Assembly: GCA_963809895.1 (NCBI GenBank)
Contig: CAWELD010000003.1
Span: 448,001-512,000 of the forward strand
Reading direction: 5' to 3'
DNA length: 64,000 nucleotides
From: an uncultured Gemmatimonadales bacterium
Lineage (GTDB): Bacteria > Gemmatimonadota > Gemmatimonadetes > Longimicrobiales > Gaopeijiaceae
This document shows positions 55,775 to 61,255 of the stretch, piece after piece. Numbering within the stretch: the stretch's first letter is position 1; every line of letters begins with the position of its first letter. Both the position numbers and the translations under genes were made by a program. The notes below the pieces were generated by a model. It did not search any database. It was not told the origin of the DNA and was given only the letters and a program-made list of their open reading frames with translations.

Positions 55775-56770
55775 TCAGGACGACGGTGAACCGAAGGGAC
55801 CTTCCAACTCCGGCGCGTGGTCGCTCCCCGGCTCCGTGGCCTCTGCCTGCAGGCGCGGGCTACCCGTCCCGTTCGAATCGACCTGGGGCCAGTAGGTCAG
55901 GGGTCGGTCCGGTAGCGGGAAGAACTGATCCGCCATCTCGTCCAGCAACGCCGGCTCTGCCGCGGCGCCGTCGGCCATGGCCAGGCGTCGCACCTTCTTG
56001 GCCAGACGGAGGTTCAGGTCGCCCACGGGGTCCAGGGCCGCAGGCGTGGAGTCGGATCGATTGCGCAGATAGTCCACGATCCCGTCGAAGGACAGAGCCA
56101 GGTAGCGCTCCACCAGGTCGTCGGCCAGGTCGAAGCGTGACTTGCGCAGGATCTGCTCGAAGATCTGCTTCCAGCGGTCGTCGTCCTGGAAGCGGATCAT
56201 CCCCCGGAAGATCCGCCGGTTGGTGCGGAAGCTGAAGATCGTGGAGCTGAGCACGCGGTCGAAGAGGGCGTCGGCGTCGCTGTGGTCGTAGTCGGTGACG
56301 ATGCGGCGGGCGAGGCCCAGGTAGCTTTCGCCCACGTGCACGTCCATGCGGTGCTCCCAGTACGTGTGACCCACTGCGGCGGTGGTGCTGGTGAGGAGGA
56401 GCTGCCGAGGCACGTAGAGGTTGTGCGCCACGGTGTCGGCGGCCAGGTGGGCGAGGTAGCCGTACCCCACCGCCGCCAGCTGCTCGCCGTCCGCCGCCTG
56501 CAGGATTTCCTCGCCCACGTGCCAGTTGTGGCAGTGGCGACCCTCGGGAACGTACTTCTTGGCGAAGGAGATGTCCGCGGCCACGGATCCGTACAGGAAG
56601 TGGATCGGGAAGCGCTCCAACAGGGCACGGACCGCGGGCGGCAGCAGATAGAGGGAGCCCAGCACGAGCTCGCCCAGCGCCACGTGGGTGCCCGGCCCCC
56701 ATGCCAGCAGCGGCTCGGGGATGAGCAACCAGGCGGCGACGACGAGCAGGAGGCCGGCGCCGAGCTTCAT
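55775..56770 (-). CDS. Zinc-dependent phospholipase C / S1-P1 nuclease family protein
   Basis: Signal peptide followed by WGPGTH; GYLAHLAADTVAH; HTYWE zinc-ligand pattern. Confidence 0.82.
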   Translation of the reverse strand: MKLGAGLLLVVAAWLLIPEPLLAWGPGTHVALGELVLGSLYLLPPAVRALLERFPIHFLYGSVAADISFAKKYVPEGRHCHNWHVGEEILQAADGEQLAAVGYGYLAHLAADTVAHNLYVPRQLLLTSTTAAVGHTYWEHRMDVHVGESYLGLARRIVTDYDHSDADALFDRVLSSTIFSFRTNRRIFRGMIRFQDDDRWKQIFEQILRKSRFDLADDLVERYLALSFDGIVDYLRNRSDSTPAALDPVGDLNLRLAKKVRRLAMADGAAAEPALLDEMADQFFPLPDRPLTYWPQVDSNGTGSPRLQAEATEPGSDHAPELEGPFGSPSS

Positions 56771-56774
56771 GCGC

Positions 56775-57296
56775 TCAGTCCTCGATCGGCTTACCCGGCG
56801 GCTGGATCCGCGCTTCCTCGCCGGGCTCGGCCAACGTGCGTGCGCCGGCGCGGATGCCGCGCACCGCGGAGGCCGTGTCGATGAAGACATCCTCCGCCTC
56901 GGATTGGACCACTTCCATGAGGGCGTTGAACTCGTCGATGCGTTCCTCCATGTGGTCCGAGGCCTGTTGCAATCGGGCCGAGAGCGCCTTGATGGATTCG
57001 TTGAGGCGCTCTACGTCGGTGCGTAGCGCAGCCGTGATGAACTCGAGGTTCGCGGCCACACCTCGGGACCGATCCAGGACCGGGGCCACGTTCTTCTCCA
57101 CGGCACGCGCGGTGTCCCGCAGGCCCCGACCCACCTTCCGGATCTGGAAGAGGAGGACCACGACCACGACGACCGTGACCACGGCGAGGGCACCCAGGGC
57201 CACGATGGCCACATCCGCCGCCACGGCCAGGCCGGATGGCGGAATCGCATCGGTGGCCTGGAGAATCGCCGTCGAAGGGAGCTCGGACGCGTACAT
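56775..57296 (-). CDS. TM plus coiled-coil protein (DUF948-like)
   Basis: One long hydrophobic helix followed by a heptad-rich helical region. Confidence 0.7.
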   Translation of the reverse strand: MYASELPSTAILQATDAIPPSGLAVAADVAIVALGALAVVTVVVVVVLLFQIRKVGRGLRDTARAVEKNVAPVLDRSRGVAANLEFITAALRTDVERLNESIKALSARLQQASDHMEERIDEFNALMEVVQSEAEDVFIDTASAVRGIRAGARTLAEPGEEARIQPPGKPIED

Positions 57297-57320: not shown

Positions 57321-57983
57321 TCAGAGAGCCAGATCGAGGCCCGGCGTCCAGCGTCTCAGCTTGGGGATCAGCGGCGGGCGCATCTCGGGCATTCCCCGTC
57401 GCAGGGCACGGTCCAGCTCGCGTCGCAGGTCGTCGGGGAGCGCGGCCAGGGCGTCGCTCAGGGGACGCTGCCCTTCCAGGAATTTCCCGAGAGCCTCGTC
57501 TACCGCGCGCAGTGTGTCGAGGTCGCGGCCTCGGAGCGGCGCGGGCATGCTGACGCCCCCGGCCCACACCGCCACTTCGGATCCGTACAGGTCTCCCAGC
57601 GGAAGGGTCCGCGCCCGGGCGCCCTCCAGCACCAGGTGGGTGCGGGTCGTGGTGCCCAGGACGAGGAGCGCTCCGGCACCGGCCAGGGCTCGGGCGGCCG
57701 CTGCCCGCGCCAGGGTTCGAGCGCCGGCGGACGGCTCGACGACTCCGGCCTGCTCCCCGCTCGGATCCAGCGTGGCGAACACGTCGGAGAGGCGGCTCAC
57801 CAGGGCCCGGTCGGGCTCCTCGACAGGCACGCCCGCTTCCTGGAGCCAACGGGTGAGGAGCCGGGCCTCGGGGCTGGCGCCGTCGTCCAGGACGCAGCCC
57901 CGCAGCTCTCGGACGCGCAGGGCCTCCGAGACGACGCCGCACACCACGTCCCGGACCCTCTCCTCGGCCGCTGTCAGGCTCAC
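57321..57983 (-). CDS. Degenerate NAD+-synthetase (NadE)-like protein, 220 aa
   Basis: GTG overlaps the nitrilase stop. Residual NadE motifs LVLGTTTRTH, PLGDLYGSEV, RPPLIPKL; no SGGxDS. Confidence 0.6.
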   Translation of the reverse strand: MSLTAAEERVRDVVCGVVSEALRVRELRGCVLDDGASPEARLLTRWLQEAGVPVEEPDRALVSRLSDVFATLDPSGEQAGVVEPSAGARTLARAAAARALAGAGALLVLGTTTRTHLVLEGARARTLPLGDLYGSEVAVWAGGVSMPAPLRGRDLDTLRAVDEALGKFLEGQRPLSDALAALPDDLRRELDRALRRGMPEMRPPLIPKLRRWTPGLDLAL

Positions 57984-58864
57984 GGTACCGGGGTGCCGAG
58001 GATGCGTTCGATCTCGCGGGCCACGAGCCCCGGGTCCTCGTCTCGCAGGTGGCTGTAGGGCGTACGGGCCCGCCGCACGGCATCGGCTTCGAGAGTCACG
58101 CGCAGCCGGTCCACGCCCGTCGAAGCTCGCGTCATCACCACGCCGTCGGGCGCCACCACCAGGGATTCGCCGGCGAAGGTGACACCGCCTTCGACCCCAG
58201 CGCGGTTGCACAGGACCACGTAGACGCCGTGGGTGAGCGCCGTGGTGCGGGCCAGCAGCGACCACGCCTCGGTGGAGGCGAAGGGAGCGCCCGAGGTCCC
58301 CTCCAACACGCCCCGGCCGGGTCCTGCGGCCACCACCACCAGGACCGCCGCACCCTGGAGGGCGGCCAGGTAGGGAAGGGATGGATGCCACAGCTCTTCG
58401 CACACGAGGAGGGCGGTGGGCCACCCGGGGGCCACCTCGAAGACGCGGGGGCCCCGGTCGCCGGGCGCGAAGACCCGGCCTTCGTCGAACATGCCGTAGG
58501 TGGGCAGGTAGCGCTTGCGGTGGCGGTGCAGACGCTGCTCGCCCCGCCACGCGGCGGCCACGTTGAAGACGCGCCCGTCCTGGTCCCGTTCGGGATAGCC
58601 CACGACCGCCACCGGGCCTTCGGGACCCGTGAAGGGAAGAGCCGCCCCGTCGGACACAGCGAGCTCGGCGGCCCATCGCCCCAGGTCGTAGCCCGTCAGG
58701 CACAGCTCGGGAAAGACCACCAGATCGGTACCTTCGTCCGCCGCCTGTCGCAGAGCCTCCGTGACGACGGCGACGTTGGCATCCATCTCGAGGCGCCGGG
58801 GCGCCGTCTGCTCCACGACCACACGCAGCGCCGAGGGGGGCGCCGATGTTCGATCGGTGGTCAC
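57980..58864 (-). CDS. Nitrilase-family carbon-nitrogen hydrolase, similar to the glutaminase domain of Gln-dependent NadE
   Basis: E-K-C triad: FPELCLTGY, HRKRYLPTYGMFDEGR, VCEELWH; NRAGVEGGVTFAGES. Confidence 0.9.
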   Translation of the reverse strand: MTTDRTSAPPSALRVVVEQTAPRRLEMDANVAVVTEALRQAADEGTDLVVFPELCLTGYDLGRWAAELAVSDGAALPFTGPEGPVAVVGYPERDQDGRVFNVAAAWRGEQRLHRHRKRYLPTYGMFDEGRVFAPGDRGPRVFEVAPGWPTALLVCEELWHPSLPYLAALQGAAVLVVVAAGPGRGVLEGTSGAPFASTEAWSLLARTTALTHGVYVVLCNRAGVEGGVTFAGESLVVAPDGVVMTRASTGVDRLRVTLEADAVRRARTPYSHLRDEDPGLVAREIERILGTPVP

Positions 58865-60201
58865 GGAGCCTCTTCCTGCTCCGAGGGTGGCGGGGCCGGT
58901 TCGTGGCGCTTCATGGCCTCCACTCGGGCCCGGTGGTCGTCACCCTCCTGGATCGCCTGCTCCACCCGCGGCGAAATCTCGCCGGCCCGGCGCAGGACCT
59001 GAACCGTGAAGAGGGGGCCCACCAACTCCGACAGAATCACGCCCAGGACCACCACGGCATACAGCACCTCGACGCCCGCCACACCGTTCACGCGCACGGT
59101 GCCGGCGCCCAGGGTCAGGGTGAAGGCGAGGGCCATGGCCAGCGAGATCCCGCCCTGCGGCAGGAGTCCCAGCCCGAAGCGCCGAGGCGTGGAGAAGGGC
59201 AGGGGGACCACGCTGACCAGCGCCGCGTTGCCCACGACCTTGCCCGCCGCCCGCAGGAGGGCGTAGCCCAGCGCCAGCGGAGCGATCCACCAGGTGGGAA
59301 AGCTCAGATAGACGCCGGCCAGAAGCAGGAGGATGACGTAGATGGGCTTTTCCCAGCGCTCCAGATTGCGGTTGATGCGGGCCTGCTCCCGTGTTGGCGC
59401 CAGGTTGGCGACCACCGCGCCCATGACGGCGGAGGTGAAGAGGGGAGACATCTGGAGCTGGAGCGCCGCGCCTGCGGCCAGCGCCGAGATCCCCAGGAGA
59501 TACAGCACGAGCTCCTCGCGTCCGGGACGGAGGCGGACCAGCCAGAGGAAGACGATGCCGCACACCAGTCCCAGGCCGACGCCGGCGAAGATCCAGAACA
59601 CCCATCCGCCGGTCACGGAGTCCGCCATCGCGCCCGTGCCGTGGAAGACGGCGTAGATGACCTGAAGAGCCACGATCCCCACGAAGCCGTCCAGCGAAGC
59701 CACGAAGAACAGCAGCTGCCGTACATTGCCCCGCACCAGGAAGTTGGCCGACACCATGGCGATGCCGGCGGGCGTCGAGATGGCGGCGGTGGCCGCGGCG
59801 CCCAACAAGAGCGCCTGGGCCGAAGGGCCCTCGAAGCCCGCCATCTTCAGCGCGGCGCCACCGGCCACCACGAAGAGGGCGAAGGTGAGCAGCGCCTGTC
59901 CCACGGCCACCGCGAAGAACGACCAAGGGAAGCGGCTGAGCACGGCCCGGTCCATCTGCATCCCGAAGTGGAGGCCCACCCATCCCAGGCCCACACCCAG
60001 CAGAGGCTGGAGTTGCGCCACCGCCTCCCGGCTCATGAGACCCAGGACCACGGGGCCCAGGAGGAAGCCCAGCAGGAGGAAATGGGCGCCCGTGCGGAAG
60101 AGCAGGCGGGGCCCGGCCGGCACGCGCTGCGTGGAGAACGACACCCGGGCGCCCAGGAGCGCCAGGAGGATCAGTGCGAGGGTGGCGAGAAGCGGATCCA
60201 T
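58861..60201 (-). CDS. Cation:proton antiporter family membrane protein
   Basis: About 12-13 TM; FLLLGFLLGP, GLGLLPQGGISLAMAL, ELVGPLF. Confidence 0.82.
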   Translation of the reverse strand: MDPLLATLALILLALLGARVSFSTQRVPAGPRLLFRTGAHFLLLGFLLGPVVLGLMSREAVAQLQPLLGVGLGWVGLHFGMQMDRAVLSRFPWSFFAVAVGQALLTFALFVVAGGAALKMAGFEGPSAQALLLGAAATAAISTPAGIAMVSANFLVRGNVRQLLFFVASLDGFVGIVALQVIYAVFHGTGAMADSVTGGWVFWIFAGVGLGLVCGIVFLWLVRLRPGREELVLYLLGISALAAGAALQLQMSPLFTSAVMGAVVANLAPTREQARINRNLERWEKPIYVILLLLAGVYLSFPTWWIAPLALGYALLRAAGKVVGNAALVSVVPLPFSTPRRFGLGLLPQGGISLAMALAFTLTLGAGTVRVNGVAGVEVLYAVVVLGVILSELVGPLFTVQVLRRAGEISPRVEQAIQEGDDHRARVEAMKRHEPAPPPSEQEEAP

Positions 60202-60235
60202 GGGGAACCGTGGGCCGCGGGGAAGACCCCGGCCT

Positions 60236-60583
60236 TCAGACGGACTCGCCCAGCTCGGGCGCCAGTCCTACGACTCGGGTCACGGGGATGGCGAAGGCGA
60301 TTCCCGTCGCCGGATCTTCCAGGTTTCCGGCCACGTCCTGGAGGAGGGCGAAGGCGGCGGCGACCTTGTCGTCGGCCACCACCGAGAAGATCGTCCGGTT
60401 CTGGGGACGGGAGCCGGAGATGAGGGTCTGCAGTCCCGCGAAGATGGGAATGTCGTGGGACAGCAGGCGTCCCATCCCCTCGCTGTTGATGATGGTGGCG
60501 CCCGTGATCCCCAGCTCCAGGTAGCCGGAGAGGATCTCGTCCACCCTTTCGGGATCGTTCACCACGGCGATGAGGAGCTGCAT
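60236..60583 (-). CDS. PII-like signal transduction protein
   Basis: GITGATIINSEGMG and ATGIAFAIPV...VGL; 115 aa; no canonical YRGAEY T-loop. Confidence 0.8.
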   Translation of the reverse strand: MQLLIAVVNDPERVDEILSGYLELGITGATIINSEGMGRLLSHDIPIFAGLQTLISGSRPQNRTIFSVVADDKVAAAFALLQDVAGNLEDPATGIAFAIPVTRVVGLAPELGESV

Positions 60584-60585
60584 GG

Positions 60586-61050
60586 CTAGACGTGCTGCTC
60601 GTCGACGTGGCGAATGGCCGCCACCGCTTCGTCGCCCGAGTTGGCGCTGGACAGCTCCTCGACGAAGCCCGGGTGCCGGACCAGGCGGCAGATGCGCGCC
60701 AGGAGCTTGATGTGCTCGCGCTCGCGGCCCGGCGGCGACAGGAGCACGAAGAAGACCCGGACCGGCTCGGTGTCATCGGGCCCGAACTGCACGGGCTCGG
60801 GTGCGAGCGCCACCATGAGCACCGGCCCCGCGAGCCCGGGGATGGTCGCATGGGGAAGCGCCATGCCGTGGCCCATGGCGGTCGTGTGGGCATGCTCGCG
60901 CTCCACCAGCGCCGCCTCGACCTCTGCGGCCGAGTCGACGATGCCCCGAGAGGCCAGGTGGCGGGCCAGAGCGGCCAGCACACCGTCGGTGTCGGGTGCG
61001 GTCAGGCCCGTGAGGACCAGATCGGCGCGGAGGTACTTGTCGAGTCGCAT
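60586..61050 (-). CDS. PTS EIIA (Fru/Ntr type) protein
   Basis: [19 protein letters not shown] (phospho-His), [18 protein letters not shown]. Confidence 0.9.
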
Positions 61051-61255
61051 GTCCGCGGGCGGGAAGGGAGCGCGCTCACAACGGAGGGATCCTGATCGTA
61101 GACGGGCCCGCGTCGAGGTGTCAAGACGCCGTGGGGTGCCCCGGCACGCAGGTTGCTGCATGGGCAGGCGCCCGGATAAGTTCCGGCCCGGCGCACGTTC
61201 CGGGGGCCTTTCCGCCCCACCGCCGGCTCCTGCACTCTCTCACGCGCTCATCCGC

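Follow-up and report, generated by a model that had tools for sequence, protein, structure and literature searches.

Glutamine amidotransferases normally hold their glutaminase silent as long as the synthetase intermediate has not been formed, and glutamine is thereby spared. The described system closest to the locus considered here is the type C NAD synthetase (NadE) of T. thermophilus (TTC1538-TTC1539), in which separate and adjacent genes encode a nitrilase-type glutaminase (G subunit) and a synthetase that has the NadE fold and whose C-terminal loop is extended (S subunit), the two forming a tight 1:1 complex (De Ingeniis et al. 2012, PMC3376133). The extended loop is presented there as the signature of NADS partnered by a glutaminase (PMC3376133). 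Other described forms are the fused glutamine-dependent NadE (PDB 3n05, 3dla, 3ilv, 5kha), for which one study reports that the P2 loop relays the activation signal to the glutaminase (PMC6946656), and the dimeric NadE2, regulated by PII (Santos et al. 2020, PMC7196632). The locus presented here resembles type C NadE in its adjacent, separate G and S genes, in its nitrilase-type glutaminase and in the NadE fold and extended C-terminal loop of its S subunit, but this subunit (162-235 aa in its family) is devoid of the catalytic and substrate motifs and of the P2 loop, and the genome has another NadE. It shares with the fused enzymes the conserved active-site residues of the glutaminase, and these enzymes give the best fold matches, with the tail covered, but here the two halves are separate genes. 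A PII-like gene lies upstream of the pair, recalling NadE2; it does not track the pair and travels with EIIA and cation exchanger genes, and a NAD feedback site relieved by PII would not be expected in the dead subunit. The reading that we consider best, with a probability of roughly 0.6, is that of a type C NadE in which a dead S subunit serves as scaffold for an ungated amidase, predicted to act on glutamine or a close amide.

The window, which is the whole stretch of 64,000 nucleotides analysed, carries the pair on its reverse strand among the genes listed in Table 1. The first-pass annotation had described an intact nitrilase followed by an overlapping NadE-like reading frame hidden inside a longer one, and both frames were found where it had placed them. 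The nitrilase has its triad (E53, K117, C155) and the motif LPTYGMFDE, and its TGA shares 4 nt with the GTG start of a 220-aa ORF, which the ORF list displays only as part of a 460-aa frame (57321-58703). The three strings quoted for the motif positions of the 220-aa ORF are also present, in the right order. GC content by codon position is 0.83/0.55/0.86 in the 220-aa frame and 0.78/0.83/0.60 in an overlapping 290-aa frame, a pattern that identifies the former as the coding one. An identical -4 start is found in 49 of 58 homologues, and in 29 of 61 genomes the two genes lie side by side; the coupling noted in the window is conserved. In one sediment metatranscriptome, short contigs are nearly identical to 57435-57627 and 58105-58258, which are parts of both genes; these contigs are not counted as evidence of expression.

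Table 1. Features of the pair and of its surroundings (positions in the window)
Feature	Position	Strand	Basis
Nitrilase-family amidase, NAD-synthetase glutaminase type (G subunit), 294 aa	57980..58864	-	Pfam PF00795 CN_hydrolase, E 4.4e-30
Pseudo-synthetase (dead S subunit), NadE fold, 220 aa	57321..57983	-	Profile, hhalign, AlphaFold model
Helix at the N-terminus of the pseudo-synthetase, residues 5-24, main nitrilase contact in the prediction	57912..57971	-	Complex-prediction interface
Remnant of the loop SGGxDS that binds pyrophosphate, residues 29-40	57864..57899	-	Column-for-column alignment with intact subunits
Conserved C-terminal loop P-K-L-x3-T-x-G-x-D, residues 207-217	57333..57365	-	Most invariant segment of the family
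DUF948-like gene, outside the pair, marks the conserved locus	56775..57296	-	Pfam PF06103, E 1.6e-7, below cut-off
PII-like gene, upstream of the pair	60236..60583	-	Pfam P-II, E 6.8e-7
Cation/H+ exchanger	58861-60201	-	
PTS EIIA gene	60586-61161	-	

The likeness of the 220-aa protein to NadE is beyond chance, yet it is invisible to single-sequence tools. Searched as a single sequence, the protein has no NadE match in Pfam or NCBIfam, BLAST against the NadE of its own genome gives an E-value of only 0.18, and PF02540 is matched by only 2 of 26 family members (best E 0.008). A profile of 26 homologues, in turn, reaches the NadE structure 3p52 with an E-value of 1.4e-5, and hhalign aligns the family with an intact type C subunit over 204 columns (probability 97.9%, E 3.9e-13). 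The AlphaFold model (pLDDT 89) was compared with 48,161 chains, and only seven NAD/NMN synthetases gave a Z of 8 or more; the top match was the glutamine-dependent 3n05 (Z 14.8, rmsd 4.5, 199 residues aligned), and the next unrelated fold family had a Z of 6.9. Foldseek agrees on NAD synthetase, and in the ESM Atlas two Gemmatimonadota clusters come first, followed by NAD synthase clusters. The fold suspected in the first reading of the window thus emerges from profile, profile-profile and structure comparisons alike. A word-based protein search retrieved only 2 relatives, and a metagenome scan retrieved none.

Loss of the motifs was assessed by aligning 58 family members (profile score above 100 bits and no match to the intact-subunit model at 1e-30; about half from one genus) with 110 intact synthetase subunits or domains. 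SGGxDS, NxxARxR, PxGDLxK and [FHYW]KR occur in none of the 58 members and GTxNKxE in one; the P2-loop motifs are found in 0 of 58, and the P2-loop segment itself is deleted in all of them. The intact sequences had been picked for SGGxDS, so the count of that motif among them holds by construction, and the motifs that were not selected for occur in 81-106 of the 110. The same picture is given by an unfiltered set of 134 representatives, those of at least 150 aa among the best 150 of the library, in which SGGxDS, GYxTxxGD and PxGDLxK are each present in 0 of 134, none of the catalytic motifs occurs in more than one, and the C-terminal tail pattern is present in 121. We take the lost residues to have been the P-loop and those binding Mg, ATP and NaAD. 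What the family has retained is the hydrophobic core, PLGDL and the tail P207-K208-x4-T213-x3-D217, in which P207, T213 and D217 are 100% conserved and K208 97% (n=58); this tail aligns with that of intact type C subunits. Judged from its sequence, the protein is a pseudo-synthetase without catalytic and substrate motifs that still carries the C-terminal loop of a glutaminase partner.

Two roles had initially been imagined for such a protein, a scaffold and a nucleotide sensor controlling the amidase. In the second case, the dead subunit would be a ligand-sensing regulator whose old cleft binds a nucleotide or another metabolite and switches the amidase. The overall NadE fold is indeed kept, as is PLGDL; the position of the NKxE lysine is basic in the whole family (K/R 100%), with the preceding Asn in 69%, and allostery from synthetase to glutaminase is known in NadE (PMC6946656). 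However, the P-loop, the Asp/Glu presumed to bind Mg, the NaAD motifs and the Lys presumed to bind ATP are all lost, together with the signal-relaying P2 loop in all 58 members, and this disfavours the sensor. Conservation is also lowest in the middle of the protein (0.32), and in some members the length has dropped to about 162 aa. We therefore regard a sensor as unlikely.

The scaffold is the better supported of these two roles, by the conserved C-terminal loop and by prediction of the complex, and is still an interpretation of both. For nitrilase and pseudo-synthetase predicted together, the score was 0.67 and that of the best of three controls 0.00, with a mark that 116 of 157 solved complexes and 2 of 215 mismatched pairs attain; contact agreement between runs was at least 84%, and the partner pLDDT was at least 83. 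Because structures of fused NadE are solved, the score may reflect likeness to them. The predicted contacts are made mainly by helix 5-24 and residues 218-220, and not by most of the conserved tail, and conservation at the contact residues hardly exceeds that at non-contacts, such as the rest of the helix (0.61 vs 0.55). The tail could be kept for the fold of the subunit itself, or a 2:2 arrangement might engage it; the arrangement of subunits in which the tail makes contact is taken from PMC3376133.

Codon analysis of 29 near-full-length sequences, taken from 30 loci of genus g21, and of 26 nitrilases for comparison, showed that the dead subunit evolves under purifying selection, which is real and weaker than that on the nitrilase. 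Maximum-likelihood omega was 0.16 (GY) or 0.23 (MG) for the dead subunit and 0.08 or 0.12 for the nitrilase, and fixing omega at 1 for the dead subunit lowered lnL by 478. Pairwise counting over 325 pairs gave higher medians (0.49 and 0.34, respectively), as expected at a GC3 of 0.92-0.95. One could suppose that a redundant gene is being slowly lost, shielded by operon structure only; an omega about twice that of the nitrilase and the frequent loss of the pair would fit. However, the frames are open across three families at 30-42% identity, none of the 36 matches in g21 contains a stop, omega of 1 is rejected and tail residues are invariant, so that simple decay appears highly improbable. The proposal of a maintained pseudo-enzyme, made initially from an unbroken frame and a kept coupling, is borne out by these dN/dS values (0.16-0.23), by the conserved coupling and by the intact nadE found elsewhere in the genome, which encodes a fused enzyme of 592 aa (P0005) with intact motifs.

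The partner nitrilase is of the NadE glutaminase type. Within NCBIfam it comes closest to the N-terminal portion of the NAD+ synthase PRK13981, and its best PDB profile matches are the glutamine-dependent NadE 5kha and 3n05. Among 51 nitrilases paired with a dead subunit, E53, Y59, K117, Y123, E128, C155, E156 and R184 are each present in 51 of 51 and F126 in 98%, the Mtb equivalents of these active-site residues being taken from PMC6946656. The Glu-Lys-Cys triad and the Tyr/Phe/Glu of the YRE-equivalent loop, which distinguish a NadE-type glutaminase, are thus 98-100% conserved in these 51 copies. By contrast, P182, the equivalent by motif of Mtb Pro204, is retained in 37% of dead-paired nitrilases, and all of the 68 type C and 29 fused enzymes compared have it (100%); Pro204 belongs to tunnel constriction 1 in PMC6946656. 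Two residues, H272 and D277, are specific to the dead-paired family. The Ser preceding Pro182 is replaced in nearly all of the 51 copies (A80 G10 P4 V4). We assume that the Ser of this Ser-Pro motif binds glutamine.

These changes could be read as a switch of substrate, for example to 2-oxoglutaramate or to a damaged-metabolite or envelope amide, with the dead subunit shaping a new entrance: the Ser is gone almost throughout, the Pro has fallen from 100% to 37%, and H272 and D277 are new to the family. However, the same Ser is also missing in 37% of the type C nitrilases that are paired with an intact synthetase and in most nitrilases of family f9, so its loss was rejected as a diagnostic sign of a changed substrate, and Tyr123, Phe126, Glu128, Glu156 and Arg184 are all retained. 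A switched substrate is therefore rather unlikely. Two individual nitrilases deserve mention. The TGA flagged in the G047 copy falls on the 5' edge of the match and so precedes the frame of 286 codons. The nitrilase of G027 (L148:2908-3795), which occurs without a dead subunit, sits on a long branch and has an altered YRE-equivalent loop with the triad kept; a change of function following loss of the partner is possible.

The distribution of the pair was followed in 61 genomes, that of the window and 60 relatives. Besides the 29 genomes with adjacent genes, two have the nitrilase alone (G027, G034) and in 29 neither gene was found; a full-length dead subunit without a nitrilase gene was found in none of the 61. 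In G048 (L147:2300-3020), only 3' remnants of both genes persist, with an unrelated frame on the opposite strand upstream; here the two genes have eroded together. L037 (CP070682.1) has a third nitrilase without its partner, and the lone copies of G027, G034 and L037 all directly precede DUF948, those of G034 and L037 looking normal and that of G027 being much diverged. Since the nitrilase occurs alone in these three, the partner is not always needed. The L037 locus contains a run of N and resembles a Gemmatimonadota-type block amid unrelated genes; the assembly may be chimeric. In G060 (L151:8390-9300), a frameshifted nitrilase lies beside a whole dead subunit, and the frameshift may be a sequencing error. 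A database protein of 522 aa (P0008), considered as a true G-S fusion, proved to be the read-through of this frameshift. In several genomes of family f7, the nitrilase frame is only about 310-350 aa, suggesting, from frame lengths, further split forms.

The pair is near-universal in one genus and patchy in the family of the window. In g21, 36 of 37 genomes have a match, none of them with a stop inside it, and in the genus of the window the pair is present in 9 of 20 genomes; in a wider sample of 48 genomes of the window's family, the family nitrilase was found in only two besides that of the window (G000). A draw of 301 genomes across the phylum, with 10 candidates scored per genome, yielded family members only in the order of the window; for other orders, this negative applies to the genomes searched. 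The named carriers are records of Longimicrobiales or Longimicrobiaceae and form one clade with the nitrilase of the window (100/99), which makes Longimicrobiales the probable order of the window. Where the pair is missing, both genes are cleanly absent and the rest of the locus is intact (20 of 20 loci examined). Sixty of the 61 genomes carry a separate match to NadE; the kind of working NadE varies between carriers of the pair (fused, long fused or short). It varies in the same way across the order (e.g. G047, G056, G046, G052, G060), and there are sometimes two per genome.

The DUF948-like gene occupies the same position in dead-pair, intact-pair and most pair-less loci. Together with a gene matching PF00882 (zinc-dependent phospholipase C-like), it spans 55775-57296 on the reverse strand, and the PF00882 gene is shared by 58 of 61 relatives (identity 58-90%). 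Many relatives have a small, presumably YtxH-like gene between the two. On the other side, the EIIA gene, the PII-like gene, which is non-canonical, and the cation/H+ exchanger gene form a module (58861-61161, reverse strand), parts of which are gained and lost independently of the pair. The PII-like gene directly precedes the nitrilase in several genomes and is the sole remnant of the module in several. A functional link between it and the pair was considered and rejected: it is kept in 17 of 20 pair-less loci and missing from several loci that have the pair.

The dead subunit might also be kept for some other partner, such as the working NadE, in an inhibitory dimer, or the DUF948/YtxH-like neighbours. 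Survival of the nitrilase alone in three genomes and the constant neighbours of the locus would agree with this. However, the dead subunit itself is never found whole in the 61 genomes where the nitrilase gene is gone, the two erode together in G048, the working NadE differs in kind among carriers, and the neighbours persist where the pair has been lost. Another partner thus seems very unlikely.

Outside Gemmatimonadota, the nearest nitrilases mostly precede a separate synthetase with intact motifs, which is the type C arrangement. Within the class, in families f9 and f13, the arrangement G > intact S > DUF948 > Zn-PLC-like gene was seen in 7 of 7 loci examined, as around the dead pair, and the Zn-PLC-like last neighbour was found in none of 71 loci from other phyla. 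Intact type C S subunits are matched by the profile of the family along almost their whole length (E 1e-11 to 1e-17); the syntenic type C subunits score 44-68 bits against it, and the fused NadE of the window's own genome scores 27 bits. The first-pass annotation had taken fused glutamine-dependent NadE as its model; the kinship with NadE stands, and gene order and profile scores make the two-subunit type C enzyme the closer one. That the pair arose when the fused nadE of its own genome split was considered and is not favoured by the profile scores, the nitrilase tree being compatible with shared ancestry. In that tree, the dead-pair clade joins the fused NadE of the class (98/97) and not the syntenic intact pairs; a constrained grouping of dead-pair nitrilases with f9/f13 is not rejected (p-AU 0.116). 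A duplication after the split from f9/f13 would fit both the synteny and the tree, if one copy then fused and moved and the other, left in place, was deprived of its synthetase activity.

The same loss may be seen at an earlier stage. In a genome of family f9, P0146 (G438:C2:2032-2865; L261 / L277) lies at the same locus, in frame, behind an intact nitrilase, and is 58% identical to the intact S subunit of the congener G398. It keeps 12 of 29 conserved positions that are lost in the main family vs 12 of 14 that are kept (Fisher p 0.009, for positions that are not independent); intact subunits keep a median of 29 and a minimum of 20 in the same test. Pairwise omega between G438 and G398 is 0.48 for the S subunit and 0.26 for the nitrilase. 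A second NadE is present in G438 and in four of the other f9 genomes checked, and the two f13 genomes show one only. On its residues, G438 appears to have lost the same synthetase motifs independently and recently, repeating the pattern of the main family in one genome; the state of this single genome may also be early decay.

A plausible course of events can be proposed for the dead scaffold and its amidase. A second nadE would make the synthetase activity of the paired copy redundant, and the amidase would already have been useful in its own right, or have become so. Having evolved as half of a tight complex, the amidase would keep the docking surfaces of its partner (N-terminal helix and C-terminal loop) under selection, and the active site of the S subunit would erode while these surfaces persist. 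With the P2 loop gone, the amidase would no longer be switchable by the NaAD-AMP intermediate, and with the proline of the tunnel constriction relaxed, ammonia would probably escape to solvent. The substrate would most likely be glutamine or a closely related amide whose alpha-carboxylate is free, and formation of NAD from NaAD, ATP and glutamine by the pair is predicted to be absent.

A comparable case is HisZ, a catalytically dead paralogue of HisRS that is a proven allosteric subunit of ATP-phosphoribosyltransferase. In both cases, the dead paralogue of an essential enzyme has been kept as part of a different enzyme; unlike HisZ, which has an unrelated fold, the pseudo-synthetase is partnered by the dead enzyme's original glutaminase, and regulation here is only a proposal. 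No description of an inactive NadE subunit was found in the full-text literature searched, a coverage that largely excludes subscription journals. The main text of PMC3376133 contains neither 'inactive' nor 'degenerate', and its supplementary genome tables might list such genes. The family is a real and conserved pseudo-enzyme family that is apparently undescribed, a variant of type C NadE whose members fall outside that class by their catalytic motifs.

Altogether, a dead synthetase half next to a glutaminase half conserved across the order implies that the uncoupled enzyme has a use under selection. In a broader and tentative reading, to which we give somewhat less than even odds, the glutaminase half would have a second job that uses the synthetase as a mere body, and this job would repeatedly have outlived NAD synthesis, the S subunit having died at least twice independently (in the order-wide family and in one genome of another family); the result would be a new heteromeric amidase in which a pseudo-enzyme locks a gated glutaminase in its active state. 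Three states stand side by side in these bacteria, the intact pair, the recently dead subunit (G438 vs its congener G398) and the long-dead one, a series suited to studying the gating of a glutaminase by its synthetase and the entrenchment of pseudo-enzymes. The unfiltered library search returned 122 clusters of the dead family at E 1e-30 or better, and a function class can now be offered for more than 120 protein clusters (50% identity) that are at present labelled hypothetical.
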